From Chryseobacterium gleum (GTDB taxonomy: Bacteria; Bacteroidota; Bacteroidia; Flavobacteriales_D; UBA2798): a stretch of DNA of 52,512 bases. The translations under genes and the position numbers were made by a program. Every line of letters starts with the position of its first letter. Position 1 is the stretch's first letter. Location: assembly GCA_945865695.1 (NCBI GenBank), contig CAMBFX010000002.1:1-52512 (forward strand). Reading direction: 5' to 3'. The notes beneath the pieces are model-generated. The model had not been told where the DNA came from, did not search any database, and was given only the letters and a program-made list of their open reading frames with translations. Below are positions 10,536-41,248 of this stretch, piece by piece.

Positions 10536-10942
10536 ATGGCAATTTCGGATTTCTAATGTTGAATTTCGAATTTTTTGAATGCACCATTTAGCGGAACTTT
10601 TATTGCTGCAAATTTTAGTTTCGCAACTCTTTGGTGAATAATGGCCGCTTCTAGTTTATTTGTTGGATTTGGATTTTATTTAGTGATGAAAGGTTTAAAT
10701 AAACGATGATTCAATTTGTAGTAGTTTAAAAATCAGTTATTAGTATTTTTTTTAGTTTTATTCATTTGAACATATTTTATTTTTAATAGTGATTTAAATC
10801 ATTGGTATTTTAAAATATTTTTCAACATAATTTCCTGTCTAATTTCCTAAAAACTATATAGGTAACAATATATCTATGTAGTCATACTATTAATTAATCA
10901 TTAAATAAATCGTTTTATTCTCCAAATTTTATTAATAAAAAT

Positions 10943-10950
10943 TAAATTTG
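10943..10950 (+). promoter_or_regulatory. Candidate Bacteroidota sigma-A -7 box (TAAATTTG) for the large operon
   Basis: Matches the TAnnTTTG consensus. It lies 27 nt upstream of the TTG start at 10977, at the end of a 441-nt AT-rich intergenic region. The candidate boxes at the fic gene and at 40648 show the same geometry. Confidence 0.35.
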
Positions 10951-10976
10951 AATACTTAAACTCTAACACTACCCAT

Positions 10977-15700: not shown

Positions 15701-18700
15701 GTGCCAACGATCCTGTTTGGGGAAATTCATTTTCAGGAGGAATAAATGGGAAAATCAAAGTTCCAACAGAAATCCAATGTGGAGCTAACATGATTATGGG
15801 TAACCGTGAAGGATTAAAGTTCTGGTATTTTGATGCATGGTTTAATGATACTCAAGGAATGGGATTGAAAGTGGGACCACTTTTCAATATTACTGCCATG
15901 GAAGGAAGAATTTACCATCACATGTCAATTCAAGATGGTCAATTTATGCCTGATGCAAATTTAGCTTTTGGTGGTGCTTTGTATCTGCAAATAATAGATC
16001 CTAGTGGCGGAAGAATGGTTGCTGCTGATATTGGAGCAGAATTGAAAGTTTATGAAGATGGTGAATTCACTATAGGAATGAAGGGTGATGTTGCAGTTTT
16101 AAATAAAACACAACGAACTGCTGGTCCTGCTGGATCTCTTTCAGCAGTTGGTGAAGCGGCGTTGGCAGAGGTAGTTGAATCAATTGGACCTCTTTCTCTA
16201 TCTGTTGAAGTTGGAGGCGGAACATTAACTGTAACTGCTGAAAGTTTGAAAAAAGGATCTCTAGATTATGCTAAAGGAGATATGAAAGTTGGATTTGATA
16301 TTGATGTTACAGCAAAGCCAGGGGTTGGTTTTAGCTTTGAAAAAGGGGGTAATGGATTTTCTATGAATGCTGATGCAAGCGGAGAATTTGGTCTTGGAGT
16401 AGCAGTTGATGGCGTAGAAGTTGGTATTGGTATTTCAGGCACGAGCGGTGGTTATTTAGATTTTGCATACGAAAGTTTTAAAGTGACTGCAGGTGTTAAT
16501 AGAACCACAAAAACAGGAAGTTTTGATTTTGATTATGATGGAAAAGGATTTGGAATTAACGTTGGAAAAACATCGGGGGATTTAAATTTACGACTTTCAC
16601 CAACGCGTAAATTCGAAGCTGGATTTAACTCAGCCGGTTCTGCTTATATCGGTCTACAATATGACGATAATATGTTTAGACTCGCTGGTGATAAAGTAAC
16701 CAAATCAGGTAGTCTAGAAGCCGCATTCGGTGAAATTGAGCTGTCATTGGCGGCCAATGCCCAAGAAGGTTCTGCTAGCGCAATTTTGAAAATGCCGAAT
16801 TTCTTATTGGATATTGGTGGTAAAAAAGGAAAAGGAGGAAACTTCAATCTAGCAACTTCAGATTTCTCACTTGATATCGAAGCCGATATTGAAGAAAAAT
16901 CGGGAGCGCTTGGTTTTTCTTTTGATGGAGGAAATAAAGCTTTTAGAGCCGAATTAGATGGCGGATCAACCGGGAAAATCAGTTTCAAGCATAATGAAAT
17001 TGAATTTGGAATCGGAGGAAATGCTGATGGTTCAGCTGGAAGTGTGATGTATAAAGATGGTTCGAATGAGTTTGAAGTAGCAGTTGACAAGAACGCAGGT
17101 ACAGGAGCTTTAACCTTATTAATCGATGGAAATGGAATTGAATCAGCGGTGGAGGCAGACACTGCTTATGTTTCTTTTAAATACGATAACTATTTATTTG
17201 GAGTAGGTGCAACACCAGCAGGAGCAGGAGCTATTTCTTTTTCTGATGGATCAACCTCTTTTGCTTTAGCAGGTAACCCAGATGAGAAATCGGGTTCATT
17301 CAATTTAGAATTTAACGGAAATAAAGTTGCATTAGCTACTAATCTAACTACTAAAAAACATTCATTCTTAGTTGAAGCAGGTGATGTATCTTTCAATGCA
17401 AAAAGTGAAGACAATAATTTTGAAGTAGGACTTGGTTACCAAAACCATGAGGTTAAATTATCAAAAGGTGGTTCTGCTGGAAGCACAGATGGTTCATCAG
17501 GAAGCGTTTCTTATACGGATGGAACTAACACTTTTGCTTTAGCTGCCGATCCAGACGCACGAACAGGAAGCCTTACCATTGATTTAAATGGAAATGGTGT
17601 AAAAACCGCAATCGATCCCGATTCTTCATTTGTTGAGTTCAAATATGAAGGATATGAATTTATCAGTGGTCTTTCTTCAAGTGGAAATGGGGTGGTAAAA
17701 TATTCACAACCGAATAATTCATTTGAGTTATCTGGAAATCCAACACAACAAAGAGGTGCGGTGGAGTTGAATATTGGTTCAAATAAATTAGCGGTTTCAA
17801 CGGATATCCCTGCTAAAACACACTCCATAGAAATTGCAACTTCTGAAGCGAAGTTTGTAGCAAGTACATCTCCTTCTACTAAAAATCTTTCTTTAGAATA
17901 TGGTAATTACGCTGTCTTCGCTAAAAAGAGCTCAGATGATTATGGAGTAGGTTTAACGATAAACGGCCGTTCTATAGAAGGAGGAATTGATAATAATATA
18001 AAATTCATCAATTATAAAGGCGATGGAGTTGAAATAGGAATCGCTTCCAATAAAATATCTTTAAAGAAAGGAACAAACTCTTTAGAAGTAACTGAAGAGG
18101 ATATTTTTATTGATGGTACATCTGTTCAAGATTTATTGGCAAATGCAACGGCAACTTATACTAAAACTATAGGAGGCTTAACTGCTACCATCGTATTAAA
18201 TGCAGGTGAATATTCAGTTGCCTTTTCATCAGGTGGTAATGGTGTAAAAGTAACAACCTCTGATTTTGCTAATGGTGAAGTTGAAGTTACTATTAATGGA
18301 ACGCCAGTTACTATTAGTAAGGATAACGAAAAGTATTCTCTTGCTGTTAATGATTATGAAGCCATATATGAGCCAGGAAACTTAACCCTTAAAAAAGGAG
18401 CTGATAGAAGTATAAATGTAACGGGTGATGCATTAGCAGTTGCTTTTGACGGATATAATGTTTCTGTTTCTGCGTCTGAATTGAAATACGATGATGGACA
18501 AAATTCAGGTTCATTATCAGCTGAAGGATTAGAATTAAAACGTGACGAATATGAATTATTCGTGAGCGAAGCAGAGTTTGGTTTAAAAATGGGTGCAACA
18601 AAAAGTTTGGAGTTAACTAAAACATCTATTGCTGTAAATTATGATGATTTCAAAGCTTCTTATACCCAAGGTGAATCAATTGAAGTAGGTTATGATGATT

Positions 18701-20454
18701 ATATGATGGCTTTTACGGATGGTAAATTGAGCTTAAGTGTAGGCACAGGTAGAAATATTGAAGTAGGTAAAGATTTATTAGACATAGATTTTGACGGTTA
18801 TAATTTCAATGTAACCCCAACGGCTTTTACATTCCTTAATGGCGATAATAAGGTTTCTATTTCTGAAAATGGATTGGCTCTTGCCAAAGGAGAAAATAAA
18901 TTTTTTGTTGGACCGGAAGAGTTCGGCATAGAACTAGGAGCATCAAAGCATGTCTTCTTGACTAAAAAATCTCTTGATGTAAAATATGATAATTACCTAG
19001 CTTCCTTTAGTGCATCAAATGCTTTATCATTTAGTGATGGAACCAGAAGTTTTGCATTGTCAAATGAAGGACTCGAAATGTCGGATGGAAATAAAAGTAT
19101 TGCAATTCTTGACGATAATGGATTTCCTGCAATTGCTCTACAATCGGGTAATGATAAATTTGAATTAAACCAAAAAGGTTTTGCTGTTGAATATGGTGGA
19201 AAACGTTATGCAGTAAATGAAACCGAATATTTAACGCTGGATATCGATGCTACTCGTAAGGTTGAAATAATGAACAACGGTGTAAAATATGTTGATGGAG
19301 ATTATCAATTTATCTTAGGTGGTTCTGAAAATTATGTGGAATTAACAGATGGCACAAAAAGTATCGCGCTTTCACAAGATGATAAATTAATTCTGAAAGA
19401 CGGTGAGTACTATGCTTCTTTAAGTAAACAACTAGCCGTAGAATTTAGAGATGGAACACGGACGGTAAAATTGTTCGATAACAAGCATTACCTAAGTTAT
19501 GAGCAGGGTTCTTATAAATTCGGTATTCGGGGTGCAAACGGAGCAAAACCTGGATTGGATTTCTCCTATGATGATTATTCATTTTCTGTAGAAGGTGATA
19601 GAAATAAGAATGTAACTGTTGGTGTAACAGCACCGCAATTTGGAACAATTAGTGCCACAGTTAATAGTCAAAAGGATATTACTGCAACTTATAGAGCCGA
19701 TGCATCTTCAGTTTATGGCTTTCTTGTGGATAATGGAAAACTTCAATTGGTCAATGGAACGTTGAATCCTCCAGTTCCTGAGCAATTAGATGGTGCACCA
19801 AGCATTCCTGCTCAAGATGGCCCTCAACATTTAACCAATAGCATTTCAGCCGATGCTGGTGGAAGTATAATAGGAACTTGTAATATTTTCTTTGATAGTC
19901 GTGCTTCAAGATTTATGTTGAGTGCTGCTGTTGCAGGTAACAGTCCAGTTTGTATAAAAGGGGCAATGGCTTTAGATATTTCTCCTGGACAATTTCATTT
20001 AGATTTAGGAACGGAGCAACAACGTATTGAAGTTTATCCACTTTGTAGCGGATTCGGTGGAGGTGGATGGTTAGGTATTCACAATACAAATGTAGATTTA
20101 GGAGTATTTGTTGGATGGAAAGCTAGTGCTTCAGTTTCAATTGGATCAGATGTGATTGGCGCCAAATTAACAGCTGCAGCTTCAGCCGAATTAGGAGTTA
20201 AGTGTAATTTGGATTTAGATCCTTTTAAGATTAACAGAGCAGGTGTTTGGGTGGAAATTTATGCTGGAATTTATGCTAAATATTGGGCAGTAGGTGTAAG
20301 TGGATCTTTAACTATTGCAGAAATTTATTTGAAAGGAACTTTGGATGTGGAGTTTAATGATAAGACTAAAGTGTCAGGAAGCTTGGATGGAAGAATAAAT
20401 CTTTTGGATATTATCACAGCAAGTTTCGGAATGTCTTTTAGTGCAGAAATTTAA
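12754..20454 (+). CDS. Giant secreted or surface protein (~2,566 aa), family unknown
   Basis: I prefer the ATG at 12754 (MFFKKMIQAFLRSIAIPAMVLMPLIGHS/Q signal peptide) over the track start at 12694. It overlaps the upstream stop by 11 nt. The N-terminus has Ig/FN3-like modules, the centre is Gly-rich and repetitive with a beta-rich character, and there is no recognisable T9SS CTD. Confidence 0.85.
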   Translation: MFFKKMIQAFLRSIAIPAMVLMPLIGHSQFMPVGVNVIMNPPNSPFISDYYSLESNAFQSFITLNDLNEPTWDVRLVVTIEGQGLVIETKRSFIPLQPISLIAGVPVIIQGADLTEYMNVNNVNLQGITAATLNQNGKLPEGLYNFCIEVLDYRSGVPLSIKSCGTAFIFYENPPVLLVPESETALQPSDPQNIFFHWQMAGGASPTIAATSQYKLFVYELQDENENPYYAVQNSKALLIYESDFQQTTSQTIDFGMSNSAPLTPGKRYIYRVRAVDADLKNIYKNDGYSEYGWFFYGYPSDGVLNISAPLDKHIYTKIENKIFNWTTSNKGIPGQEYEYMIFFKEKNIGQTNEQAMENNPEWLLVNQPATTSMNGGDFLLTQELDPGQNYVWQVKAMTGIQQVAESPIYEFFAPSVMDQFMAGNFPVKIVTMNDFTKVGNNYTNVSGKGRIQLSEDPSDVIDADFTNIRIDDLAGTMIMTQGTFNFDLSSREPNELEPLVAENGAAKFYYENGVVNSQGVKINGHIEWPFPHATTSGELEKLTTQDALFTLNSSFKLNGAATLGEAKDFNLLEPHEMVIKLDANTEISVSSDKYNLKMNGNILVSDEVLTSSGTPYSIKIMQQPQLYYFNANNLLVYSSNFLKPIQNMNIGFMPKSAVIDLSESTSPGKKENEPSWKGIYFEEFQVRLFQSEFDGTNQVLIPGNIDYHEDQTIHDFWIANQGLHLKYDFTTTETDVFFNRFRTTIDGKIRIEDNEVSNSNFRGNIKIPVISDQDLFGFEIPLNTQGLQLGYLYEDLSLRSIAFNPFGGENRIDVTINRAVFADNERLDLEINAEVAAFGCTITGINDFRIYGDNVIGVGGRNGSKKLDNRVSGEYNNYTVYITDVGASLFNGNFVFSYKAEMDMGEDVVGADGPPVLSVSSISPAGDDVELPVYSVSTPQPEPAIAVPTDPEAATSQTLVAVDLFIAINNSIVELEGYLKIRANDPVWGNSFSGGINGKIKVPTEIQCGANMIMGNREGLKFWYFDAWFNDTQGMGLKVGPLFNITAMEGRIYHHMSIQDGQFMPDANLAFGGALYLQIIDPSGGRMVAADIGAELKVYEDGEFTIGMKGDVAVLNKTQRTAGPAGSLSAVGEAALAEVVESIGPLSLSVEVGGGTLTVTAESLKKGSLDYAKGDMKVGFDIDVTAKPGVGFSFEKGGNGFSMNADASGEFGLGVAVDGVEVGIGISGTSGGYLDFAYESFKVTAGVNRTTKTGSFDFDYDGKGFGINVGKTSGDLNLRLSPTRKFEAGFNSAGSAYIGLQYDDNMFRLAGDKVTKSGSLEAAFGEIELSLAANAQEGSASAILKMPNFLLDIGGKKGKGGNFNLATSDFSLDIEADIEEKSGALGFSFDGGNKAFRAELDGGSTGKISFKHNEIEFGIGGNADGSAGSVMYKDGSNEFEVAVDKNAGTGALTLLIDGNGIESAVEADTAYVSFKYDNYLFGVGATPAGAGAISFSDGSTSFALAGNPDEKSGSFNLEFNGNKVALATNLTTKKHSFLVEAGDVSFNAKSEDNNFEVGLGYQNHEVKLSKGGSAGSTDGSSGSVSYTDGTNTFALAADPDARTGSLTIDLNGNGVKTAIDPDSSFVEFKYEGYEFISGLSSSGNGVVKYSQPNNSFELSGNPTQQRGAVELNIGSNKLAVSTDIPAKTHSIEIATSEAKFVASTSPSTKNLSLEYGNYAVFAKKSSDDYGVGLTINGRSIEGGIDNNIKFINYKGDGVEIGIASNKISLKKGTNSLEVTEEDIFIDGTSVQDLLANATATYTKTIGGLTATIVLNAGEYSVAFSSGGNGVKVTTSDFANGEVEVTINGTPVTISKDNEKYSLAVNDYEAIYEPGNLTLKKGADRSINVTGDALAVAFDGYNVSVSASELKYDDGQNSGSLSAEGLELKRDEYELFVSEAEFGLKMGATKSLELTKTSIAVNYDDFKASYTQGESIEVGYDDYMMAFTDGKLSLSVGTGRNIEVGKDLLDIDFDGYNFNVTPTAFTFLNGDNKVSISENGLALAKGENKFFVGPEEFGIELGASKHVFLTKKSLDVKYDNYLASFSASNALSFSDGTRSFALSNEGLEMSDGNKSIAILDDNGFPAIALQSGNDKFELNQKGFAVEYGGKRYAVNETEYLTLDIDATRKVEIMNNGVKYVDGDYQFILGGSENYVELTDGTKSIALSQDDKLILKDGEYYASLSKQLAVEFRDGTRTVKLFDNKHYLSYEQGSYKFGIRGANGAKPGLDFSYDDYSFSVEGDRNKNVTVGVTAPQFGTISATVNSQKDITATYRADASSVYGFLVDNGKLQLVNGTLNPPVPEQLDGAPSIPAQDGPQHLTNSISADAGGSIIGTCNIFFDSRASRFMLSAAVAGNSPVCIKGAMALDISPGQFHLDLGTEQQRIEVYPLCSGFGGGGWLGIHNTNVDLGVFVGWKASASVSIGSDVIGAKLTAAASAELGVKCNLDLDPFKINRAGVWVEIYAGIYAKYWAVGVSGSLTIAEIYLKGTLDVEFNDKTKVSGSLDGRINLLDIITASFGMSFSAEI
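17029..17950 (+). repeat. Two tandem 462-nt (154-aa) intragenic repeats, each an internal ~70-aa half-duplication
   Basis: GSAGSVMYKDGSNEFEVAVDKNAGTGALTLLIDGNGIESAV... aligns with GSSGSVSYTDGTNTFALAADPDARTGSLTIDLNGNGVKTAI... The two units start at 17029 and 17491. Confidence 0.8.
18382..19070 (+). repeat. Two tandem 345-nt (115-aa) intragenic repeats of a second family
   Basis: LTLKKGADRSINVTGDALAVAFDGYNVSVSASELKYDDGQN...FGLKMGATKSLELTKTSIAVNYDDFKASY aligns with LSLSVGTGRNIEVGKDLLDIDFDGYNFNVTPTAFTFLNGDN...FGIELGASKHVFLTKKSLDVKYDNYLASF. Confidence 0.75.
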
Positions 20455-20461
20455 AAATAAA

Positions 20462-22450: not shown

Positions 22451-22452
22451 AT

Positions 22453-23553
22453 ATGAAAAAAATTATTTTTATGAGTTTTTCAATGTTGGTATTGGTGAAA
22501 ATCACCAATGCTCAAGTTGGAATTGGAAATGCAACGCCAAATCTAGGAAGTATTTTGGATTTGACTAATTCAAACGACAAGGCATTAATTCTGCCAACAT
22601 CAACGCCAATACCAACCTCTGTTGGAACATTTACTGTGTCAGGAATGATGATGTATTTTAACGATAAAATATTTCTGAAAACAAGCACTGGTGTTAACGT
22701 GCTTTCACCTTGGATTTATAGTGGTGTTCCCGCCAATGGAATCTTTAGTGAAGTAGGTTTACCTATTGGTATTGGCATTGCTCCTTTACTAAACTCTTCT
22801 GCTATTCTAACTATTGCTGATGCAACAAGTGAAGTTACTGTTACTACTTCTACGGCTTCTGTTGTTATAGGTGACAATGATTTTAATGCCACTCATATGT
22901 TAATCGACAAAGACGAATTGTTGGTCAAAACAAATGCAAATACAGTAGGTACTTTGAAATTGCAAGAAGCAAATGGAGGTACAGTCCAGGTTGGAGAAAA
23001 TTTAACTAATCAATCTAATCTAAATGTTTTCGGAAAAATTCAACAAAATGGAAGAGACTTAGTTCCTGTTGGATCTATTATGCTTTGGTATGGACTATTT
23101 GATACTGACTATCCCATAGTAGCAGGAGTTACAAATACTAATTGGCATATATGTGATGGAACAAATGGCACACCTAATTTATCAAATGCATTCGTTGTAG
23201 GAATTGATATGTCTACCACTGGTAATAGTGCACCTTTAACCAACAACGGCCAATCAATGCTTAAAACAATTGACATAGCTAATCTACCGGTTCATACACA
23301 TACAATCGATCATGGGCATGGTGTAACAGACTTACAGCATAGCCATACTACTCAAATGGGAGATAATGTTGGTAGTGGGCAACCTGATGATGCAACTGGA
23401 AGTAATGGAGGAAATGCTACTTCTAATGCATCTTCTTCAAATGTTACTGTGAATGATCTTGTCGGTGGAATATCTGGTTTTACTGGATTAGGAACGCAAT
23501 TGAATATTACCCCTGCAGCGAGTCGTTTAGCTTACATTATGAAAATAAATTAA
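22453..23553 (+). CDS. Secreted phage tail-collar domain protein (MdpB-like), paralog 1
   Basis: Signal peptide MKKIIFMSFSMLVLVKITNA/Q. The C-terminal half carries PVGSIMLWYG...WHICDG..GTPNLSNAFVVG...ANLPVHTHTIDHGHGVTDLQHSHT...LAYIMKI, which is the tail-collar / microcystin-dependent-protein pattern. Confidence 0.8.
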   Translation: MKKIIFMSFSMLVLVKITNAQVGIGNATPNLGSILDLTNSNDKALILPTSTPIPTSVGTFTVSGMMMYFNDKIFLKTSTGVNVLSPWIYSGVPANGIFSEVGLPIGIGIAPLLNSSAILTIADATSEVTVTTSTASVVIGDNDFNATHMLIDKDELLVKTNANTVGTLKLQEANGGTVQVGENLTNQSNLNVFGKIQQNGRDLVPVGSIMLWYGLFDTDYPIVAGVTNTNWHICDGTNGTPNLSNAFVVGIDMSTTGNSAPLTNNGQSMLKTIDIANLPVHTHTIDHGHGVTDLQHSHTTQMGDNVGSGQPDDATGSNGGNATSNASSSNVTVNDLVGGISGFTGLGTQLNITPAASRLAYIMKIN

Positions 23554-23621
23554 TAATAGCATTGAAATTTATGAAAAACAAATCATTCAATCATTTAAAT
23601 AGAGCCAAAATAAAAATCACA

Positions 23622-24752
23622 ATGATGAAAAAAACTATTTTAATTTCTACAGTTTTCATTGGTTTTGCATGTTTTGCAAATGCACAAGTGGGTATTGGAA
23701 ATGCTACTCCAAATCTAGGAAGTATTTTGGATCTTACTAATACAAATGATAAGGCATTAATTCTGCCAACATCAACAGTAATACCAACGTCTGTAGGAAC
23801 ATATACTGTTTCTGGAATGGTATTTTATTATAACGATAAATTATTTTTAAAAACAAGCACTGGTGTCAACGTACTTTCACCTTGGATTTATAGCGGTGTT
23901 CCCGCTAATGGAATTTATAGTGAAGTAGGTTTACCTATTGGTATTGGAATTGTACCATTAACCAACTCTACTGCTATTCTAACCATTGCTGACGCAACAG
24001 GCGAAGTTAGGGTTACAACCTCCACTGCTTCTGTTGTCATTGGCGATAATGATTTTAATGCTACTCATATGTTAATCGATAAAGACGAATTGTTGGTAAA
24101 AACAAATGCGACCACAGCAGGAACTTTGAAGTTGCAAGAAGATGGGGGAGATGTGGTAATTAGAAGTTCAACTGCAGATGCTGGTGTTACAACAATTCTT
24201 ACTGCGCATGGTTCAGTTGATGCAAAAGGTAAAATAAAAGAGAATGGTAATGATTTATTGCCCGTGGGCTCTATTATTATGTGGAATGGAACCACTGTGC
24301 CTGCAGGATGGGCATTGTGTGATGGCGGAACGTATAATCTTGATGCAGGCGGAACAATTGTAACTCCAAATTTAATGGATCGTTTTATTGTAGGAGCTGA
24401 TGCAACAAATGGTAATGGTGTTGCTGTGGGTACTTATGCTTATACAAATACAGGTGGAGCAACTTCTACTATTTTAAGTACTGCCAATTTACCTTCACAT
24501 GATCATACAATTAATCATGGGCATACTGTGACTGACCCAATGCATAGCCATACTCTTAACATGGGGGATGACAATGGATCTGGTGTGCCAGATGATGCAA
24601 CTGGAACTAATGGTGGAAGTTATACTACTGTTTCTGCCGCAACTGGCCTTACAGTAGATAATCATACAGGAAATTCGGGAAGTACAGGCTCAGGGACACC
24701 TTTTGAAAATCGTCCACCATATTTTGCATTAGCTTTTATCATGAAATTGTAA
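23622..24752 (+). CDS. Secreted phage tail-collar domain protein (MdpB-like), paralog 2
   Basis: By analogy with paralog 1, I prefer the start MMKKTILISTVFIGFACFANA/Q at 23622 over the TTG at 23562. Motifs: PVGSIIMWNGTTVPAGWALCDGG...TPNLMDRFIVGA...ANLPSHDHTINHGHTVTDPMHSHT...NRPPYFALAFIMKL. Confidence 0.8.
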   Translation: MMKKTILISTVFIGFACFANAQVGIGNATPNLGSILDLTNTNDKALILPTSTVIPTSVGTYTVSGMVFYYNDKLFLKTSTGVNVLSPWIYSGVPANGIYSEVGLPIGIGIVPLTNSTAILTIADATGEVRVTTSTASVVIGDNDFNATHMLIDKDELLVKTNATTAGTLKLQEDGGDVVIRSSTADAGVTTILTAHGSVDAKGKIKENGNDLLPVGSIIMWNGTTVPAGWALCDGGTYNLDAGGTIVTPNLMDRFIVGADATNGNGVAVGTYAYTNTGGATSTILSTANLPSHDHTINHGHTVTDPMHSHTLNMGDDNGSGVPDDATGTNGGSYTTVSAATGLTVDNHTGNSGSTGSGTPFENRPPYFALAFIMKL

Positions 24753-24802
24753 ATAGATTGAAATTGAAATTTGATTTTCTCACTCAAAAAAAAATTAATA
24801 GA

Positions 24803-27800
24803 ATGAAAAATTCTAATTGTAATACAGTAAAAACAAGACAACTTTCCTGCAGGAAACTGTTTCTTGGTATGCTGTTTTTGGTCTTGTCTTCATCAGTAAT
24901 GAATGCCCAACAACATGTGGTGCATACCGGAGAATTTATAACCATTAAACCATCAACGGATTTATATCTTTTTGGAGATTTTGATTCTAGAAGTACTGTG
25001 AATTCAGAGGTTCTTAATGAAGGTGTTTTTCATCTTCAAGGTAATTTGATTCACAATGGACAACAAAATTTATTTGGCGCCACGCCCAATACAGGAACCT
25101 TGCGATTCTTTGGTAATCCTGCAACAAACGCAACGATTACAGGTAATGCAGCTATAAATTTGAAAAATTTGACCATTGATCTTACTAGCAATATAACCGG
25201 TGGAGGAAATGTTTTATTGAGAAAAAACGGTGTAACTGCATTCGGGGATGTTAGTTTTACCAATGGTGGTTTTGAATTGGATACGTATGTTTTTAATTTA
25301 TTTCATGACGTATCGAGTATTTCTTCAGGTATAATTGCAGAAGCAAATGGAGCGAGACCTTATATCGGTGTATCTAATCCAATAGGTAAAATTTCTTTAC
25401 TCAATTATGCTTTTCCAAGTGGTAGCACTTATACCAATTTAAAAGGGATGGGTCTTAGTTTTACGCAAGATGATCCTTTGGGAGGAACTCCGGTGCTTCA
25501 TCGAACATTTGATACTTTAGATTGTGGTGATACGTATGGAAGTATTTTAAGAGCATTCCGAATAGAAGGCAATGCTAATCCCGCCCAGTTCTCTTCTACA
25601 AAAATAAAATTCCTAAACGGGTCCGAACTAGGAACTAATCCCAATGGAACCAATTTGAATGTTTTTGTGAGTGAAGATAATGGACAAGTTTGGCGCCCAA
25701 AAACAATAGATATAGGAACATCAACTCAGGTGAATAGCATAGGATCCACTGTATTTTCTACTTCTCCAAATTATACGGTTATTACAGCAGCTACACCTTG
25801 TGGTTCGGTTGTTCCTATCGAAATAAATCAAATCATTACAGGCGTTACTCCTAACGATACTTTATTTGATATTAACCAGGCTTATGCTTGTGATTTTGCA
25901 AATGTTTCTGCAAGATTGTATGCTGTAGGTGATGCCGGAGTTTATTTTGAATGGAGAAGTGACTTAAATAATTTTTATTCGGCTCAAACACCTCCCGGTT
26001 ATTTTGAAGCAACGGCTATAGGTAAATATTGGGTGAGAAGTACCAATATTCGCGGTTGTCGAGATTCCATGTCGATAGATGTTTATCTATCTTTACCTAG
26101 TAATTCAAATTTTACTACTAGTCCCTCTTCAGTATGTTTAGGTAGTTCTATTTCTTTTGCACCCAACACTACTGTAGCAGGTGCAACTTATAGTTGGGAT
26201 TTTGGTGATGGGAATACAGCTAATGCCACAAATACTTCTCATACGTATGCTGCTATTGGAGTTTATACGGTAACATTGAATGTAACCACCTTAGAAGGCT
26301 GTGTTGCCTCTTCAACTTCTTCCGTTACCATTAAAGATATTCCTAATCCTGATTTTATTGCTGGCTCTGCCTGTCCGGGTGCTGCCGTAAATTTTGATAA
26401 TAATAGTTCTGTTGTAGGTTTATTAGGTACAGTAGATTTGGATTGGAATTTTGGAGATGGAAATATAGGAAATTCACAGGGTAATCAAAATGGTTCTGGT
26501 GGAACAGGAGATGTTTCTCATGTATATGCAGCAGAAGGAACTTATTCGGTAACCTTAACTGCAACAGCAAATGGATGTACATCTGATCCATTTATAGCTA
26601 CCGTTACGGTTTATCCTGTTCCTACCACTTCTTTTACAATAAGCAATGCATGCGCTGGACAAAGTATCACCTTCACCAATTCATCTGATATTACAGATAA
26701 CTCCACCTTAACTTATGTTTGGGATTTCACTGGAGGAGGAGGACCAACTAGTAATACAACTAGTCCAGTTTATACCTATCCAGTTGCGGGAAATTACGCG
26801 GTTTCTTTAACGGCTACCAGTGTTAATGGATGTGTGACTACCATTAACCAACTCATCACGATTTATCAAAATCCTGTGGCAGCATTTTCTGTAACGAATG
26901 CTTGTGTAAATGATTCTGCTTCGTTCGCAGATATTACTCCAGAAATTGTTGGATCTACTCCTTATACTTATGCTTGGACATTTGGAGATGGTAATGTTGG
27001 ATCATTGCAAAACATATCGAATTTATATGCTGTGGCCGGCACTTATAATGTGGCAATGACCGTGACCACTGCTAATGGATGTGTTGGCTCCACAACCAAT
27101 AGTGTTACTATTTTTACAGGACCAAGCGTTTCGTTTTCTGCTTTGAGTGCTTGTGCAAATAGCCCTATAAATTTTATTAATACAACCTCCAATGCTACTT
27201 CTTATTTATGGAATTTTCCATCTTTAAGTTTAACCGCTACTTCACAAAATACCACTCAAACATTTCCTACAGATGGTACTTTCCCAGTGAATTTGACAGC
27301 AACATCTTCAAATGGTTGCCAAGGAACGTTCAATGGAAACATAACTGTTTTTGCGCTGCCTGTGGTTAATTTAGGATCTACCATTACCACTTGTGGAACC
27401 ACTTATACATTAGATGCAAATCCTGGAGGAGTAAATAATGGATGTAATTTTCAATGGGGAACAGGCGATATTACACCTCAATATGTTTGTACGTATGATG
27501 ATAATTTTAGTGTAACTGTTACCAGTGGAAACGGATGTGTTACTACAGATAACGTAGATGTAACTTTAAATGGAGTGGTTTTACCAACACTTGGACCGAA
27601 CGCTACATTTTGTGATATTGCAACATTAGATGCAGGATATCCAGGATCTACTTATACTTGGAGTACAACTGAAACGACACAGACCATTAATGTTACTGTT
27701 TCAGGAACTTATTCTGTAACAGTGATCGATCAAAACTCATGTACAGGTTCTAATTCAGTAACGATAACTATTGTTCCTGCTACGCCTGTTTCATTCGGTG

Positions 27801-29194
27801 CAGATATTACTGCTTGCTCTAACAATCCAGTAACATTGAATGCAGGTTTAGCATCTTCTTATTTATGGAGCGATGGATCTACCGGCTCTACATTATTAGT
27901 TCCGAGCTCAGGTTATTATTGGGTACAAAATACCAATGCAGGCGGATGTTCTTCCTCAGATACAGTTCAAGTGACCTATAATAATGCCCCAGTATTTACT
28001 TTAGGAGCTGACGCTACAGCATGTGATGCATTATTGTTGAATGAGTTTTTACCCAATAGCACTTATTTATGGAATGCATCTGCAACAACGCCTTCGTTTA
28101 ACGTTACCTCTTCGGGGACGTACACTTTAACGATTACGTCAACTTTAAATGGCTGTTCAGAAACTGATGCGATAATTGTTACTATCAATGATCTTCCAAT
28201 TGTAAACTTAGGAAATGATACTTCATTATGTAGCTATGCAACTGGAGTTATTGATGCTGGAAATACAGGTTCAACTTTTCAATGGAATAGTGGACAAACC
28301 ACTCAAACTATTTCAGTAGCTGCCACAGGAAATTATTTGGTTACTGTTACGGATGTTAATGGTTGCACCTCTTCTGATAATTTAAATGTTACCATGCTTC
28401 CATTGTTTTCAATTGAGTTAGGGCCCGACAAACAATTTTGTAATGGTTCAAGTATTTTATTAGATGCAGGATTAACCACCATAGGTAATACATATGTTTG
28501 GGAGGATGAAACAGGAATAATTGGAACCAACGCAACCTACTCTGTATTGGATACCGGTATGCATTACCTAACGGTTACAGACGCAAATACTTGCATTGCC
28601 GAAGATTCTGTGAATATTACCCCTTCTAATATTTCATTGTTTGCATTTTTCCTTGCAGATTCAGATATCATTCAGGGAGACGCTGTAGTATTCGTGAATT
28701 TATCTTATCCTCGTCCTTATACGTCACAGTGGTATATTGATAATACATTCATCACCAATGATTCAATGCCAACCTTCACATTCAATCAACCGGTAACGCC
28801 TCCATCAGATACCATTTATGTTAAACTAAAAGTGGATAATGTTTTTTGTCAATCAGAAATTACCAAACCAATTGTATTGAATTCTGCTTTTCAACCAACA
28901 CCTGGAACAGAAACTACTCCGGTTGATAATGGTTTATTTACAAGCATTAGAAATTCGAATCTATATCCAAATCCAAATAATGGAGTATTTAATTTCTACA
29001 TTGATTTAACTCAGGAATCACCTGCAGAAATATCAGTTTTTACAGTAACCGGCGCAATGGTTTACTCAGAGAAAAGAACCTTGTCTACAAATCTTCTAGC
29101 GTATGATTTCAGTCACCTTGAGAGAGGAATTTATTTCTTACGAGTAGGAATTTATAATGAATACAGAACGCACAAGTTTATAATTATTAGATAA
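24803..29194 (+). CDS. Large T9SS type-A cargo: unknown N-terminal domain, 5 PKD domains, 6 Cys-containing ~70-aa modules, type-A CTD
   Basis: The ATG at 24803 is preferred over the TTG at 24758; signal peptide ...LFLGMLFLVLSSSVMNA/Q. PKD signature W(D/N)FGDG...H.Y...G.Y.V.L appears 5 times. The C-terminus NLYPNPNNGVFNFYIDL...GIYFLRVGI...FIIIR is a Por-secretion type-A CTD. Confidence 0.85.
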   Translation: MKNSNCNTVKTRQLSCRKLFLGMLFLVLSSSVMNAQQHVVHTGEFITIKPSTDLYLFGDFDSRSTVNSEVLNEGVFHLQGNLIHNGQQNLFGATPNTGTLRFFGNPATNATITGNAAINLKNLTIDLTSNITGGGNVLLRKNGVTAFGDVSFTNGGFELDTYVFNLFHDVSSISSGIIAEANGARPYIGVSNPIGKISLLNYAFPSGSTYTNLKGMGLSFTQDDPLGGTPVLHRTFDTLDCGDTYGSILRAFRIEGNANPAQFSSTKIKFLNGSELGTNPNGTNLNVFVSEDNGQVWRPKTIDIGTSTQVNSIGSTVFSTSPNYTVITAATPCGSVVPIEINQIITGVTPNDTLFDINQAYACDFANVSARLYAVGDAGVYFEWRSDLNNFYSAQTPPGYFEATAIGKYWVRSTNIRGCRDSMSIDVYLSLPSNSNFTTSPSSVCLGSSISFAPNTTVAGATYSWDFGDGNTANATNTSHTYAAIGVYTVTLNVTTLEGCVASSTSSVTIKDIPNPDFIAGSACPGAAVNFDNNSSVVGLLGTVDLDWNFGDGNIGNSQGNQNGSGGTGDVSHVYAAEGTYSVTLTATANGCTSDPFIATVTVYPVPTTSFTISNACAGQSITFTNSSDITDNSTLTYVWDFTGGGGPTSNTTSPVYTYPVAGNYAVSLTATSVNGCVTTINQLITIYQNPVAAFSVTNACVNDSASFADITPEIVGSTPYTYAWTFGDGNVGSLQNISNLYAVAGTYNVAMTVTTANGCVGSTTNSVTIFTGPSVSFSALSACANSPINFINTTSNATSYLWNFPSLSLTATSQNTTQTFPTDGTFPVNLTATSSNGCQGTFNGNITVFALPVVNLGSTITTCGTTYTLDANPGGVNNGCNFQWGTGDITPQYVCTYDDNFSVTVTSGNGCVTTDNVDVTLNGVVLPTLGPNATFCDIATLDAGYPGSTYTWSTTETTQTINVTVSGTYSVTVIDQNSCTGSNSVTITIVPATPVSFGADITACSNNPVTLNAGLASSYLWSDGSTGSTLLVPSSGYYWVQNTNAGGCSSSDTVQVTYNNAPVFTLGADATACDALLLNEFLPNSTYLWNASATTPSFNVTSSGTYTLTITSTLNGCSETDAIIVTINDLPIVNLGNDTSLCSYATGVIDAGNTGSTFQWNSGQTTQTISVAATGNYLVTVTDVNGCTSSDNLNVTMLPLFSIELGPDKQFCNGSSILLDAGLTTIGNTYVWEDETGIIGTNATYSVLDTGMHYLTVTDANTCIAEDSVNITPSNISLFAFFLADSDIIQGDAVVFVNLSYPRPYTSQWYIDNTFITNDSMPTFTFNQPVTPPSDTIYVKLKVDNVFCQSEITKPIVLNSAFQPTPGTETTPVDNGLFTSIRNSNLYPNPNNGVFNFYIDLTQESPAEISVFTVTGAMVYSEKRTLSTNLLAYDFSHLERGIYFLRVGIYNEYRTHKFIIIR

Positions 29195-29195
29195 A

Positions 29196-32100
29196 ATGAA
29201 ATACGTTTTTTTAACCATATTGATTGTTTTTACAGCTAACCTGAATAAGATTCATTCGCAAGCTTGTTTGAATAATTACCAGTATCGTGTTCCAATTTCG
29301 GTTCCTAATCTCAATGCCTCCGTATTGACTAATTTTCAAGTAAAAGTATTAGTGAATACATCAGCGCTGATTACTGCTGGAAAATTACGAATTGATGGAG
29401 GAGATGTTCGTTTTACTGATGGTAGCGGAACCAATCTTTCTTATTGGTTTGACCCTGCAACTTTCAATTTTCCCGCTACTGAGTATTGGGTGAAAGTGAA
29501 TAATTTGGCGCTTGGAGCAAATACCATTTATTTATTTTATGGCAATGCTACTGTTCCAGTAGTTGCGAGTGGAGATGCAACTTTTGAATACTTTGATGAA
29601 TTTTCAGGAACCGTTTTAGATAATTCTAAATGGAATCGTTGCGGAGATATTACCAATGTAACTTTAGCAGGTGGAATTATTAATTTTAGCTCAAATAATT
29701 CAGCACCTAATTTTAAAGATGGAATTATTACTTCACTTCAAACTTTTGGCAATAATGTAATTGTTGAAACTGATGTGGTTTCTGTCAATCAAGGAAAAGC
29801 TATTCTTGGATTTATGACAGCAGCTGAAGAAGGGTATGCTACCACTTTTGAAAAAACGACTGGTGTGGATATTTTTAAATTATCCAGAATTACTACTGAT
29901 GCGGTTACTTGTCAAATTCTAACCGATATTTTACCAACTTCTGCTGCAGGAACACTTTCTGGAATATGGTCATTTAGTTGGCCAACTGCTTCTAGTCAAA
30001 CTATCGGCTGGGCGAGTGGTGTTTCTTCGTTTACCTATGCAGATGCAATACATTCGGGTGTTTCGGGTAATCAGAAAAAAATTATTTTAGGATCGCATAT
30101 CAATGCTTCTACCAATACAGGTACATTAGCTATTGATTGGTTACGTGTAAGAAAATTAGCCATAGATCCAATTACGGTTTTAGGGGCTGAGCAAGAATAT
30201 CCTGTTTCTCCTAATCCAACCAATACTGGCCCTTATTGTAATGGCTCTACCATTCAATTTAACTCCACTTCTTATTCTGGAGCTGTTTATACCTGGAAAG
30301 ATCCTTCTAATGGTACTTTTTCTACGATATCAAATCCTACTATTTCGGGAAGTACAATTGGAAATACAGGAACGTATACATTAGAAATTGCTGTACCGGG
30401 ATGTGCACCTGTAGTGACCACTACTTTTGTGGATGTTTCTAATTCTTCGAATGCAGGAGTTACTTCTGGAACAACTACTGTTTGTTCAGGAACGAATGGA
30501 GGAACTGTTTCCGTTGCAGGAATTACAGGCAGTGTTGTAAGATGGGAAATGGCTAATAATATTGCTGGACCTTGGTTTACCATTTCTAGTTCAGCTACGA
30601 GTATGACTTATGCCAATTTGCTTCAAACTACTTTGTTTCGTCCGATAGTAAAAACAACGGCATGTCCTGAGGCAGTAGGAACAGCGGCTGTGATTACAGT
30701 AGATAATGCAACAGTTGGAGGTTTTGTCATAGGAGGAAATTCGGTTTGTGCAGGAACCAATAGCGGAACAGTGAATCTTGTTTTCCAATCAGGAACTGTA
30801 ACTAAATGGCAGTTTTCTATTGATGGCGGTTTAAGTTGGACAGATATCGTTTCGAATAGTACTTCTTATTCATTTACTAATATTTCTACAACCACATTAT
30901 ACAGAGCAGAAGTTAAAAATGGATCTTGTCCGGCACAATTTTCTGCAGCGGCAACGGTGATTGTAAATCCCCTTCCTGTTCCTGGTTTTTCGGTAGCAAC
31001 GGTTTGTGAAAGTGTAGCATCGAATTTTGTGAATACAACCACCATCGCTTCTGGTTCTATCGCCAATTATCAATGGGATTTTGGAAACAGCAGCAGTAGT
31101 ATCTCTGCCAACCCAATTTATATTTATCCCAACTACGGAATTTATTTCGTGCAATTGACTGCTGTTTCAAGTGCAGGTTGTACTGCCTCTACAAGTTCAT
31201 TGGTTACTGTCAATGCGGCTCCTGATGTTTTCTTTAATGCAGCTTCTGTTTGTCAAGGTTCACCAACCAACTTTCAAGCCATCGCTTTCGTTCCAGGCGG
31301 AGGATCAATCTCCAATTATTTTTGGGACCATGATGATGCTTCTACATCCACAGTTCCGATACATTCTTATACGTATTCTTCCACTGGGGTTTACGATGTA
31401 CTTTTAGTTGCAACTAGCAATAATGGCTGTATTGATTCGGTGCGTAATGCAGTAGAAGTAGCCGCGCCTGTTTCAGTGAGTTTTATTGCAGATAGTGTTT
31501 GTTTAGGAACGGCTATTAATTTCATCAATACTTCCGCCACTAATTCTCCAAGTGTATCTTATACTTGGGATTTCGGTAATGGAAATAATTCCACTTTGCT
31601 TAGTCCGATTTATAGTTATCCTGTTATTGGAACTTATACCGTTACTCTTCAAGCACAAGTAGTGGGATCTCCATCTGCATGCGTTTCTTCTACACAAAGG
31701 ACTGTTGTGATTTATGAAGTGCCCAATCCTAATTTTACATTGGCAAATGTTTGCTTGATCGATTCAGCTTCATTTACAAATCTTACTTTTTATACAGGAA
31801 ATCCAACTGATCTTTCTTATTCATGGAATTTCGGTGATGCCACCACAGAAACCTTAACGGATCCTTTTCATACCTATGTCTCACCCGGAAATTTTAATGT
31901 ACAATTGACTGCTTCCACTATCGATGGATGCTCTGCCACCAATACACAATTGATTTCTATTCATCCAATGCCAACGGCTAATTTTGCATTCACAGATGTT
32001 TGTTTGAATACAAATATGAATTTCACTTCTACCGCAACAGTGAGCAGCGGAACACTAACACATGCTTGGGATTTTGATGATGCTTCCACTTCACCCGTAC

Positions 32101-41204: not shown

Positions 41205-41248
41205 AAATATAAATAACCCGAACAATAAAACTCAAAAATAACCATCAC

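Follow-up and report, generated by a model that had tools for sequence, protein, structure and literature searches.

Tandem fibre-like proteins with tail-collar heads and signal peptides in a T9SS-linked gene cluster of Bacteroidota

What is the function of two adjacent genes whose products end like the tips of phage tail fibres and begin with a signal peptide, in a bacterial chromosomal region where no phage gene is found around them? Such a pair, here designated tcA and tcB, is present in the window, i.e., the whole stretch of 52,512 nucleotides analysed here, as two ORFs of the + strand found where a preliminary description had placed them (Table 1). The reading favoured below, considered only slightly better than an even chance, is that tcA and tcB are Sec-exported, trimeric and metal-stabilised fibre-like adhesins with exchangeable heads, for which surface display, partner and ligands are predicted.

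Tail-collar heads on a shared N-terminal domain

The ORF of tcB opens upstream at TTG 23562 and the start retained by the gene caller was ATG 23571; ATG 23625 (MKKTIL...) is the start in line with all the homologues (36 relatives compared). As for tcA, two independent ENA contigs encode an identical protein. Compared by BLASTP, the two proteins are 60% identical overall (E = 5e-145), with 90% amino acid and 86% DNA identity over residues 21-172 against 52% amino acid and 61% nucleotide identity over residues 203-366. As such, the two initial observations, namely an N-terminal block sharing about nine in ten residues and a sharp divergence past it, both hold, and the block limits agree with the independent output of a repeat finder, which returned an ungapped direct repeat D1 (22507-22806 versus 23679-23978, 87% over 300 nt) and a second pair located further downstream (23278-23424 versus 24483-24629, 71%).

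Table 1. Features of tcA, tcB and the surrounding gene cluster in the window.
Feature	Position	Strand	Basis
p595, probable outer-membrane beta-barrel, first gene of the cluster	10977..12764	+	Signal peptide; C-terminus YNYVF
Giant secreted protein, 2566 aa, family unassigned	12754..20454	+	ORF; conserved length
FN3-like secreted protein, 662 aa	20462..22450	+	Weak FN3 and titin matches; synteny
tcA, tail-collar fibre-like protein, paralog 1, 366 aa	22453..23553	+	ORF
tcA signal peptide, residues 1-20, predicted cleavage TNA-QVGIG (before Q)	22453..22512	+	Read from sequence
tcA shared N-domain, residues 21-172, ending LKLQE	22513..22968	+	Identity to tcB; repeat D1
tcA collar and head, residues ~198-366	23044..23550	+	Motifs; PHROG match
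tcA HxH triplet, H281/283, H287/289, H296/298	23293..23346	+	Family alignment
tcB, tail-collar fibre-like protein, paralog 2, 375 aa	23625..24752	+	ORF, start by homology
tcB signal peptide, residues 1-20, predicted cleavage ANA-QVGIG (before Q)	23625..23684	+	Read from sequence
tcB shared N-domain, residues 21-172	23685..24140	+	Identity to tcA
tcB collar and head, residues ~206-375	24240..24749	+	AF2 model; Foldseek matches
tcB HxH triplet, H292/294, H298/300, H307/309	24498..24551	+	Family alignment
pkdA, PKD repeats and T9SS type-A C-terminal sorting domain	24758..29194	+	PKD_4, Por_Secre_tail, TIGR04183
pkdB, DUF2341 and PKD, T9SS type-B (CHU_C) sorting domain	29196..33212	+	Pfam, TIGR04131
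PorP/SprF-family outer-membrane protein, presumed pkdB anchor	33218..34762	+	PF11751 E 6e-55; TIGR03519

As first proposed, the C-terminal halves of tcA and tcB have homologues in the tail-collar tips of phage fibres. The motifs PVGSI..W, TPNL...F.VG and the terminal IMK(I/L) are found in both proteins alike, the tcA head reading PVGSIMLW...CDG...TPNL..F.VG...AYIMKIN. In Pfam, the Collar domain (PF07484) is matched by tcB (29.3 bits for a cut-off of 24) and by 76 of the 88 family members, and Gp10_C by 29 of the 88, while tcA stays below the Collar threshold with no Pfam match at E <= 0.01. In PHROGs, tcB matches phrog_1800 “tail collar fiber protein” (E 5e-27) and tcA, over residues 200-353, phrog_8469 “tail fiber protein” (E 3.8e-11); in the PDB, residues 198-376 in the alignment of tcB match the tail fibre 9qgo (E 2e-7), including the C-terminal PPY..LAFIMKL strand. 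The AF2 monomer model of tcB has a pLDDT of 83-95 at residues 201-260 and above 85 in the C-terminal strand, the His-rich region lying below 50. Using Foldseek, the structural check that had been proposed for each half, the head matches in the PDB a chain of 526 residues from the T4 baseplate (5iv5_AI, E 7e-5, probability 1.00) as well as 9nxk, 8kec, 6ov6, 2fkk and 2xgf, the proteins matched including the fibres of Pa223 and A-1(L), Bizionia C24, gp10 and gp37, and in BFVD 31 entries at E <= 1e-3, named tail-collar for the most part. The low TM-scores (0.15-0.3) are due to the use of a monomer model in place of an intertwined trimer.

Histidine clusters are present in both heads at the positions originally reported; calling them unusual proved inappropriate, since across 88 relatives the first HxH pair (H292/H294 in tcB) is 99% conserved and the third (H307/H309) 100%. 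Of these relatives, only about 17% have the middle HGH, and a distal HxH found in 82-86% of relatives is absent from tcA and tcB. [quoted passage not shown]

Gene cluster, export and handle

Upstream of the pair, p595 has no match in Pfam, NCBIfam or PDB; its homologues occur in 11 cluster loci and, in the canonical ones, directly upstream of the giant gene. The giant protein, which has no family or PDB match and is not a TANFOR protein, measures 2557-2567 aa wherever the full gene length was recorded. The FN3 gene, which here stops 2 nt before the tcA start, adjoins the tail-collar gene(s) in all but a few cluster loci, and pkdA sits downstream of them in nearly all. The PorP/SprF-family protein is extended at its C-terminus by a region with a weak SPOR-like match. 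T9SS type-B cargo is known to pair with PorP-like proteins (PMC9143113); pkdB and the PorP/SprF protein would form such a cargo/anchor pair, and the cluster would therefore build cell-surface structures. The canonical order, i.e., p595-giant-fn3-tc(1-3)-pkdA-pkdB-PorP with one to three tail-collar copies, is kept by seven loci from metagenomes (L001-L007) and by about 12 species genomes, and the cluster is rearranged or partial in about 20 more; overall it is seen in about 30 Bacteroidota species genomes, from Flavobacteriales, Cytophagales and Saprospiraceae; the close relatives of tcA and tcB all come from metagenomes or MAGs. Compared with the L001 locus, identity decreases from the giant protein (91%), PorP (90%) and fn3 (83%) to pkdB (69%), pkdA (61%) and the tail-collar proteins (43-64%). 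The tail-collar genes and pkdA are thus the most variable of the cluster, a ranking that fits what could be expected of exposed, ligand-facing parts.

A literature search found no published description of this gene cluster. It may tentatively be viewed as an undescribed Bacteroidota surface apparatus, with phage-derived fibres as its exchangeable specificity module, a new export route and an involvement in an arms race, a proposal we regard as rather doubtful as it stands. The arms race, of which the swapping of heads between strains would be the sign, would concern recognition of prey, host or particle in aquatic Flavobacteriales. More specifically, the cluster could be an extracellular appendage for contact-dependent capture or antagonism, where the fibres choose the prey, host or particle. 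Eight exported proteins keeping their order and sizes, among which two probable outer-membrane barrels, a giant of near-fixed length and two T9SS cargoes, argue for it, as do the spread of the cluster over Flavobacteriales, Cytophagales and Saprospiraceae and the precedent of the Bdellovibrio MAT fibres (PMC10769870). However, the domain searches of the cluster revealed no toxin, no immunity protein and no enzyme, and the giant is not of the TANFOR type; such a capture role appears unlikely, and would in any case be a special case of the adhesin reading and no true alternative to it.

Export via Sec, as originally claimed, is backed by the predicted leaders of both proteins, which comprise a basic n-region, a hydrophobic core and a cut at N-A/Q-V-G-I-G. 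An A-x-A/Q signal peptide is present in 38 of the 38 family proteins examined (tcA, tcB and 36 relatives from other loci), although the signal peptides of tcA and tcB are only 35% identical to one another. Gln at +1 fits the Q-rule of Bacteroidetes (PMC5837995, PMC10653852). No T9SS sorting domain was found in tcA or tcB with Pfam and NCBIfam (no match to Por_Secre_tail, CHU_C or TIGR04131), their C-terminus being the collar strand in common with phage fibres and not a sorting domain. Neither leader has a lipobox with Cys at +1: that of tcA is devoid of Cys, Cys16 of tcB lies outside a lipobox context, and in the other relatives listed no Cys is seen beside the cleavage site, which is A-x-A/Q. 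With neither a sorting domain nor a lipobox, tcA and tcB have no obvious known way of crossing the outer membrane and could be retained in the periplasm. Under the surface-apparatus proposal, two options can be envisaged for a new route taken by the fibre trimers, namely (i) the barrel of the cluster itself together with the giant protein, or (ii) piggy-back transport on a T9SS cargo.

The trimers could play their role within the envelope and stay inside the outer membrane, for instance binding peptidoglycan or the periplasmic portions of outer-membrane proteins of the cluster, or acting as assembly factors of the giant or PKD proteins. Besides a signal restricted to signal peptidase I, the SPOR-like match of the PorP/SprF extension hints at contact with the cell wall. 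On the contrary, the heads vary at the strain level while core proteins of the cluster are 83-98% identical, and a self-directed ligand is an unlikely driver of such variation; moreover, the characterised homologues of the head all bind external receptors, and PF26696, the module to which the N-domain appears related (see below), is fused elsewhere to lectin-type heads (C1q, H-lectin, CBM). An envelope-internal role is accordingly judged quite improbable.

With the N-domain as query, or “handle,” a profile search retrieved 436 proteins, nearly all of the 120 listed being precomputed as PF26696 (PTL_trimer), and the PF26696 proteins among these matches are fused to collagen, C1q, Hcp-like, H-lectin or CBM heads. 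The resemblance concerns the first ~65 residues and is an assignment via annotated relatives, not via a direct profile score; many full-length relatives are precomputed as PF26696 plus PF07484, the cluster representative of the window (P0001) being PF07484 only. Residues ~85-172 constitute an extra, family-specific region beyond the PF26696-like module. For this half, the Foldseek check gave no significant PDB match with a poor AF2 model (pLDDT 65), and it is the profile search instead that points to PF26696. Using tblastn against 50,697 phage records, no counterpart of the N-module was found, none of the matches listed lying before residue 97; judging from these comparisons, the handle is probably cellular in origin, not viral.

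The idea of the N-terminus as a docking module for the operon's scaffold needs correcting, its first ~65 residues resembling a generic Bacteroidota module borne by many heads elsewhere. Since PF26696 is fused to many other heads outside the cluster, the N-module is not operon-specific, and the handle may merely nucleate trimers instead of docking to an operon partner. In addition, the N-domains of paralogs are only 54-66% identical in L001 and L005, the closest three-copy loci, so a single shared docking site is not universal. A role of the N-domain as an anchor is suggested by analogy only.

Mosaic genes and the origin of the pair

Between tcA and tcB, the N-domain has a dS of 0.52, a dN of 0.06 and an omega of 0.12, against a dS of 1.18 for the head. 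The most telling comparison is with L088, a near-conspecific locus (nucleotide identity of 96.9% for fn3, 95.6% for pkdA and 97.3% for the giant gene) for which the strain baseline dS is about 0.12. While tcB and L088_tc2 have heads that are 96% identical (dS 0.16), their N-domains are only 57% identical (dS 1.2), and on these sequences a segment has been replaced. The N-domains of tcA and L088_tc1 are 95% identical over most of their length (dS 0.08), apart from one patch that has been replaced (dS 1.4), the heads of these positional counterparts being about 29-30% identical (dS ~1). Patches with a dS of 1.0-1.4 inside genes otherwise close to baseline (dS 0.08-0.16) can result only from segment replacement, unless the contigs are assembly chimeras. 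Within genomes, eight loci have paralogs with N-domains 81-100% identical and heads 32-55% identical, e.g., an exact N-block of 494 nt followed by heads roughly 40% identical in L012. As read from these alignments, the genes of the tcA/tcB family are mosaics, the modules of which are reshuffled even between near-identical strains.

Regarding recombination, the modularity at the N/C boundary seen in L088 and the eight loci is thus stronger than had been anticipated from the window, but the idea of gene conversion does not extend to recent events between tcA and tcB, as the dS of their N-blocks (0.52) is well above the strain baseline (about 0.12) and indicates that they were not recently homogenised. 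The dS of 0.52, together with the omega of 0.12, is also what can be put forward for a plain tandem duplication followed by purifying selection, where the N-halves would be alike through constraint without any recombination; the constraint is real and the similarity not recent. Such a scenario is nonetheless very improbable considering that the head has more than twice the dS of the N-domain, that N-blocks 98-100% identical in DNA lie beside heads about 40% identical in other genomes, and that the L088 genes contain the above-mentioned patches amid near-baseline segments, chimeric assembly aside.

No sheath, tube, baseplate, capsid, terminase or integrase gene was found with Pfam among the ORFs of at least 120 aa in the 52 kb of the window, where the flanks are phage-free over 22 kb upstream and 28 kb downstream and the rest corresponds to housekeeping genes; syntenic loci, on contigs of up to 477 kb, show the same non-phage cluster, in keeping with the initial claim that no prophage or injection system is nearby. 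For all the clear homology of the heads to phage tail-fibre tips, the notion that the pair is what survives of a prophage, tailocin or contractile injection system, the remaining genes having decayed or lying elsewhere, is effectively refuted, and hardly credible, given these flanks, the identical non-phage neighbours across orders of Bacteroidota, Sec signal peptides unexpected on fibres assembled in the cytoplasm, and a cellular N-module unmatched in the phage records among the matches listed.

Coming back to the adhesin reading, tcA and tcB would be secreted via Sec and then cut by signal peptidase I before Gln21, with cleavage and pyroglutamate formation expected from the Q-rule. The mature chain of ~350 residues would assemble into a short homotrimeric fibre, as suggested by the trimeric phage fibres and the name PTL_trimer, with (i) a handle made of the PTL_trimer-type module and the family-specific, probably beta-rich region (residues 21-172), (ii) a short putative shaft, and (iii) a C-terminal head combining the tail-collar domain with a presumably intertwined His-rich region. 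The handle would tether the fibre to a conserved partner, most plausibly the FN3 protein or the T9SS cargo pkdA, and the head would recognise an external ligand that varies, probably a glycan or a surface structure. Specificity would change through recombination where handle and head meet (LKLQE-GG, about residue 175-200), with paralogs of the same genome and alleles of other strains as partners.

Significance and comparison with known systems

Bacterial proteins annotated as tail-collar or MdpB number in the thousands: at E <= 1e-3, tcB matches 9,653 cluster representatives. We know of no established cellular role for bacterial tail-collar/MdpB proteins. A tail-collar subfamily with a fixed set of partners, namely T9SS surface proteins, provides a concrete and testable context for this annotation problem. 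The strain-level mosaicism suggests that shuffling of receptor-binding modules in the style of phages, so far described mainly in phages, tailocins and Bdellovibrio MAT fibres, is at work in a chromosomal bacterial operon. If surface-exposed, the fibres would show by what means Flavobacteriales that abound, uncultured, in fresh and marine waters change what they adhere to or capture, and would point to an export route for proteins without a T9SS sorting domain. The boundary LKLQE-GG may further serve as a natural junction for engineering heads of new specificity.

With phage tail-collar tips (T4 gp12, gp37, Bizionia C24, 9qgo), the homology covers the C-terminal ~170 residues, including the collar motifs, the HxH pairs and the terminal PPY..L.FIMKL strand; phage fibres similarly combine a conserved N-terminal attachment part with a recombining C-terminal receptor-binding part. 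Unlike them, tcA and tcB are short (~350 aa), bear Sec signal peptides and a cellular N-module, and are encoded in a chromosomal operon with T9SS cargo, not beside baseplate or tail genes. The PF26696 proteins of Bacteroidota have in common with tcA and tcB the leader and first module, AQVGIG..P..S.LDL.....K.L.LP...GM.FYY......W, but most are 130-314 aa long, with collagen, C1q, Hcp-like, H-lectin, CBM or DUF1566 heads and no tie to the cluster. The same collar and HxH head is found in the “microcystin-dependent protein” MdpB/COG4675, the source annotation of many relatives; this is an annotation label only, without a defined mechanism, and the BFVD matches so named are 224-317 aa long against 366 and 375 aa for tcA and tcB, with no sign in these results of the PTL N-domain or of the cluster around them.

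Regarding the SprB-SprF cargo/anchor pairs (PMC9143113), pkdB and the PorP/SprF protein would constitute such a pair, tcA and tcB themselves being without sorting domain. The literature search returned no paper linking Spr or Rem operons with tail-collar genes. To our knowledge, no described Spr or Rem operon includes such genes.

The MAT fibres of Bdellovibrio bacteriovorus (PMC10769870) are, like tcA and tcB, bacterial, non-phage and fibre-like. They are beta-prism fibres of 600-1100 aa, many with an S74 chaperone-protease, encoded at dispersed sites in the genome and associated with predation, whereas tcA and tcB are ~350 aa long with tail-collar heads and no long shaft, in 1-3 tandem copies in a fixed, T9SS-linked cluster. 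The comparison is one of description: no Bdellovibrio appears among the named matches of the 120 listed for the N-domain profile, and the sole Foldseek match of the N-domain to Bd2133 is at C-terminal domains (E 0.9). Nevertheless, the architecture of MATs, i.e., a signal peptide, a conserved beta-rich N-domain without PDB homologue (~130 aa against ~150 aa in tcA and tcB) and a variable C-terminal tip, is found again in tcA and tcB, and MAT tips are thought to be swapped (PMC10769870). By analogy, the MAT fibres thus appear closest in logic to tcA and tcB.

Export and genomic setting of tcA and tcB

Five elements make up the best-supported reading of tcA and tcB, two neighbouring tail-collar fibre-like genes: (i) the products would be exported by Sec, (ii) they would probably form homotrimeric, metal-stabilised short fibres, (iii) the N-domain, or handle, would nucleate the trimer, tether it or both, possibly by docking to a cluster-encoded partner, (iv) the C-terminal part, or head, would bind a variable external ligand from a putatively surface-exposed position, and (v) specificity would be renewed through cassette exchange at the handle/head junction. 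Both genes belong to a tightly packed array on the plus strand, where tcA starts 2 nt past the stop codon of the FN3-like gene upstream; the position matching the ATG chosen for tcB is the start in all homologues and yields a canonical signal peptide.

Features of the window
Feature	Position	Strand	Description
969-aa protein	3080-5989	-	T9SS type-A sorting domain; upstream of cluster
434-450-aa protein	9183-10535		hydrophobic leader; overlaps dnaB 3' end
p595	10977-12764	+	595 aa; signal peptide, ends YNYVF; probable outer-membrane barrel
giant	12754-20454	+	2566 aa; no family match
fn3	20462-22450	+	FN3-like, 662 aa
tcA, tcB	22453-24752	+	tail-collar paralogs
tcA	22453-23553	+	ORF, 366 aa
tcB	ORF from TTG 23562; chosen start ATG 23625	+	MKKTIL..., 375 aa
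pkdA	24758-29194	+	PKD repeats, Por_Secre_tail (T9SS type A)
pkdB	29196-33212	+	DUF2341, PKD, CHU_C (T9SS type B)
PorP/SprF	33218-34762	+	outer-membrane protein
Fic/DOC-family protein	35565-36692	-	just downstream of cluster
735-aa fusion	37853-40060	-	GIY-YIG nuclease, Schlafen-group-3/DUF2075-type helicase, Peptidase_S24 domain
two small ORFs	40683-41752		adjoin the 735-aa fusion gene; one with HTH domain

A basic/hydrophobic leader ending in A-x-A|Q-V-G-I-G is carried by tcA, tcB and 36 of 36 relatives from other loci, the Gln at +1 corresponding to the Bacteroidetes Q-rule for signal-peptidase-I substrates, in which this residue is afterwards cyclised to pyroglutamate (PMC5837995, PMC10653852). 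Inspection of these leaders revealed no lipobox, and neither Pfam nor NCBIfam detected a type-A or type-B T9SS sorting domain in tcA or tcB, while both downstream genes have one; with both signals absent, the proteins were rejected as T9SS cargo or lipoproteins. The sequence gives good support for entry into the periplasm but not for passage across the outer membrane, and this gap is the main weakness of the best-supported reading. The chief rival explanation is that tcA and tcB act in the periplasm, in favour of which no route across the outer membrane is evident for them.

Respective to genomic context, the order of the cluster recurs on metagenome contigs of up to 477 kb, with gene lengths within a few residues. 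The giant protein spans 2557-2567 aa across loci of 57-97% identity, a near-constancy more usual in a machine part than in a repeat adhesin. Neither p595 nor giant matched Pfam, NCBIfam or PDB, and, within the reach of these profiles, the idea that giant is SprA-like or a polymorphic toxin of the TANFOR type was rejected. According to a synteny script, about 30 of 80 GTDB species-representative loci have the tail-collar gene next to one or more other cluster genes. Uncultured Flavobacteriales, Bacteroidia and Bacteroidales MAGs provide most cases of the canonical order, and rearranged forms keeping fn3-tc-pkdA are found in Cytophagales, Cyclobacteriaceae, Roseivirgaceae, Saprospiraceae and Sphingobacteriales, including the cultured Chryseosolibacter histidini and Portibacter lacus; clusters hold one, two or three tail-collar copies. 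Relative to L001, a metagenome locus, identity is 91% for giant, 90% for PorP, 83% for fn3, 69% for pkdB, 61% for pkdA and 43-64% for the tail-collar genes, the latter and pkdA being the fastest-evolving members. A scan for sigma-70 promoters and terminators (10400-25400) gave counts not above shuffles and no terminator-like site between fn3, tcA, tcB and pkdA, a result compatible with co-transcription of these four genes but uninformative, since promoters in Bacteroidota depart from the sigma-70 consensus. The PorP/SprF protein exhibits a C-terminal extension of ~200 aa past the barrel domain, with a weak SPOR-domain match (residues 432-491, E 0.007), which could serve as a peptidoglycan tether.

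In agreement with the preliminary description, which had seen no prophage or injection-system genes nearby, a Pfam scan covering the window ORFs from 120 aa upwards revealed no such families, and the rest of the window comprises housekeeping or unrelated genes (citrate synthase, DnaB, Fic, GcvT, glycosyltransferases, LptF/G); that the pair is a prophage remnant is contradicted by the data. Elsewhere in the window, the 735-aa fusion could be a defence gene or regulated in an SOS-like manner. The ORF overlapping dnaB, without Pfam or NCBIfam match, has the same arrangement in three other contigs (L091-L093).

Phage-type heads and cellular handles

As a pair, tcA and tcB are strongly similar (BLASTP, E = 5e-145), and codon-level comparison resolves three zones (see the table of zones below), with both similar blocks found independently by a repeat finder. 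The coordinates and the identity of nine residues in ten first put forward for the N-block therefore hold, and the motifs then quoted are correct in both genes.

The heads are homologous to phage fibre tips, and the tail-collar fold initially proposed finds support at several levels. In tcB, the Pfam Collar domain scores 29.3 bits (gathering cut-off 24), residues 211-375 match phrog_1800 "tail collar fiber protein" (PHROGs, E 5e-27), and the solved tail fibre 9qgo aligns by sequence with residues 198-376, including the terminal PPY..LAFIMKL strand. Among 88 full-length relatives, 76 match Collar and 29 the T4 Gp10 C-terminal domain. An AF2 monomer model of tcB built from 88 sequences (mean pLDDT 72) has pLDDT values of 83-95 for the collar (residues 201-260) and the C-terminal strand, and of less than 50 for the His-rich stretch, a drop to be expected when an intertwined trimer is modelled as a monomer. 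Foldseek matches of the model include a chain of 526 residues from the T4 baseplate structure 5iv5 (E 7e-5) and also gp10, gp37, the tip of Bizionia C24 and the fibres of Pa223 and cyanophage A-1(L); in BFVD, 31 matches were obtained at E <= 1e-3, most named "phage tail collar domain". On its own, tcA, in which the first collar strand is followed by an insertion, is below the Pfam Collar threshold, yet it is unambiguously homologous to tcB and to the PHROG tail-fibre family phrog_8469 (E 3.8e-11). The family is sizeable: tcB is matched by 9,653 cluster representatives (50% identity) at E <= 1e-3, of which 61 remain at E <= 1e-30, and of the best 150 matches roughly half align over the full length.

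The histidine cluster, at first regarded as unusual, is on the contrary usual for the fold: H292/H294 are 99% and H307/H309 100% conserved in the 88-member alignment, the middle HGH of tcA/tcB occurs in only ~17% of relatives, and the distal HxH of 82-86% of them is missing from both proteins. In T4 gp12, Zn on the three-fold axis is held by His445 and His447 of each chain (PMC3004832), and paired histidines on the three-fold axis of gp37 bind seven Fe ions (as summarised in PMC11705849). Taken together, the cluster is a normal feature of the fold and, by analogy, the HxH pairs of tcA/tcB may bind metal.

The N-domain is of cellular origin. Its profile retrieves 436 proteins, nearly all of the best 120 being precomputed as PF26696 ("PTL_trimer"), with which it has in common the first ~65 mature residues (QVGIG..P..S.LD.....KG.L.PR...GL.VY....FYY.G..W). 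PF26696 proteins among the matches listed are mostly 130-314 aa and from Bacteroidota, with collagen, C1q, Hcp-like, H-lectin, CBM or DUF1566 as other heads. When tcB was searched by tblastn against 50,697 phage records, 99 matched, none at 80% query coverage; among the matches listed, none lay before residue 97 and identity was at most 34%. No N-domain relative was found in IMG/VR viral contigs, which is weak evidence as this single-protein query is sensitive only to close relatives. A separate AF2 model of the N-domain was of low confidence (pLDDT 65), with no Foldseek match in PDB at E < 0.1, and an internal duplication (two GIGI..P...L units) was rejected as not significant (BLASTP between halves, E 0.22). 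On these results, tcA and tcB are chimeras that join an N-module specific to Bacteroidota to a phage tail-fibre-type head. Other Bacteroidota proteins (P0139, P0175, P0229 and P0172) carry the PTL_trimer leader module (AQVGIGT..P..S.LD..S..KG.L.PR), in some cases twice per chain, in fusion with DUF1566-type, Hcp-like or C1q heads or with collagen repeats. Such modular secreted proteins may be lectins; no description of the family, or anything on PF26696, was found in the literature.

Mosaicism of the tail-collar genes

No other new result is as strong as the modular evolution of these genes. Within-genome paralogs at eight loci share 81-100% identity in the N-domain but only 32-55% in the head, and no N-domain from another genome comes as close as the within-genome paralog (for the window, the best such match is 72-74%). 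In the MAG loci L012 (8756-11180) and L015 (565-2860), N-domain DNA is 98-100% identical and heads ~40%, i.e., a 494-nt exact block followed by ~40% identity in the former and an N-block ~98% identical in the latter; such DNA patterns indicate very recent intragenomic conversion or head replacement. Near-identical blocks of this type could confound short-read assembly.

Zones of tail-collar genes compared
Pair	Zone	aa identity	nt identity	dS	dN
tcA vs tcB	signal peptide, tcA residues 1-20	35%	53%	0.99	0.68
tcA vs tcB	N-domain, tcA residues 21-172, ends LKLQE	90%	86%	0.52	0.06
tcA vs tcB	head, tcA residues 203-366	52%	61%	1.18	0.43
tcB vs L088_tc2	head	96%		0.16	
tcB vs L088_tc2	N-domain	57%		1.2	
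tcA vs L088_tc1	residues 1-40	93%		0.14	
tcA vs L088_tc1	residues 41-80, replaced patch	50%		1.4	
tcA vs L088_tc1	residues 81-165	95%		0.08	
tcA vs L088_tc1	head	30%		~1	

Locus L088 is from a near-conspecific strain (nt identity to the window of 96.9% for fn3, 95.6% for pkdA and 97.3% for giant; baseline dS 0.11-0.13), and its tail-collar genes are mosaics of tcA and tcB. Each of the two configurations was recovered from several independent contigs, which argues against assembly chimeras without excluding them. In every pair compared, identity falls at about residue 160-200, around the conserved LKLQE-GG junction; that the likeness of the N-halves reflects duplication and constraint only is contradicted by these data. 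In the window itself, the N-block dS of 0.52 is four times the strain baseline (0.12), so that the exchange involved a diverged allele rather than a recent copy of the adjacent gene, and recent intragenomic conversion was rejected there. As such, the proposal in the preliminary description that the N-blocks are substrates for recombination or gene conversion is borne out by the mosaics and by the apparently recent events in L012 and L015, and fails for the window as regards a recent event.

Comparison with known systems

Domesticated fibre-like adhesins and the PTL_trimer plus Collar architecture are known kinds. The fixed association of tail-collar genes with a T9SS surface-protein cluster including two uncharacterised families appears undescribed, no literature tying tail-collar proteins to PorP/SprF, DUF2341 or the T9SS having been found, and so does strain-level swapping of both heads and handles in a chromosomal operon. 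The logic proposed for tcA and tcB is that of phage receptor-binding proteins and, among cellular systems, of the mosaic adhesive trimer (MAT) fibres of Bdellovibrio, which possess a signal peptide, a conserved beta-rich N-domain of ~130 aa whose partner is unknown, and swappable tips (PMC10769870).
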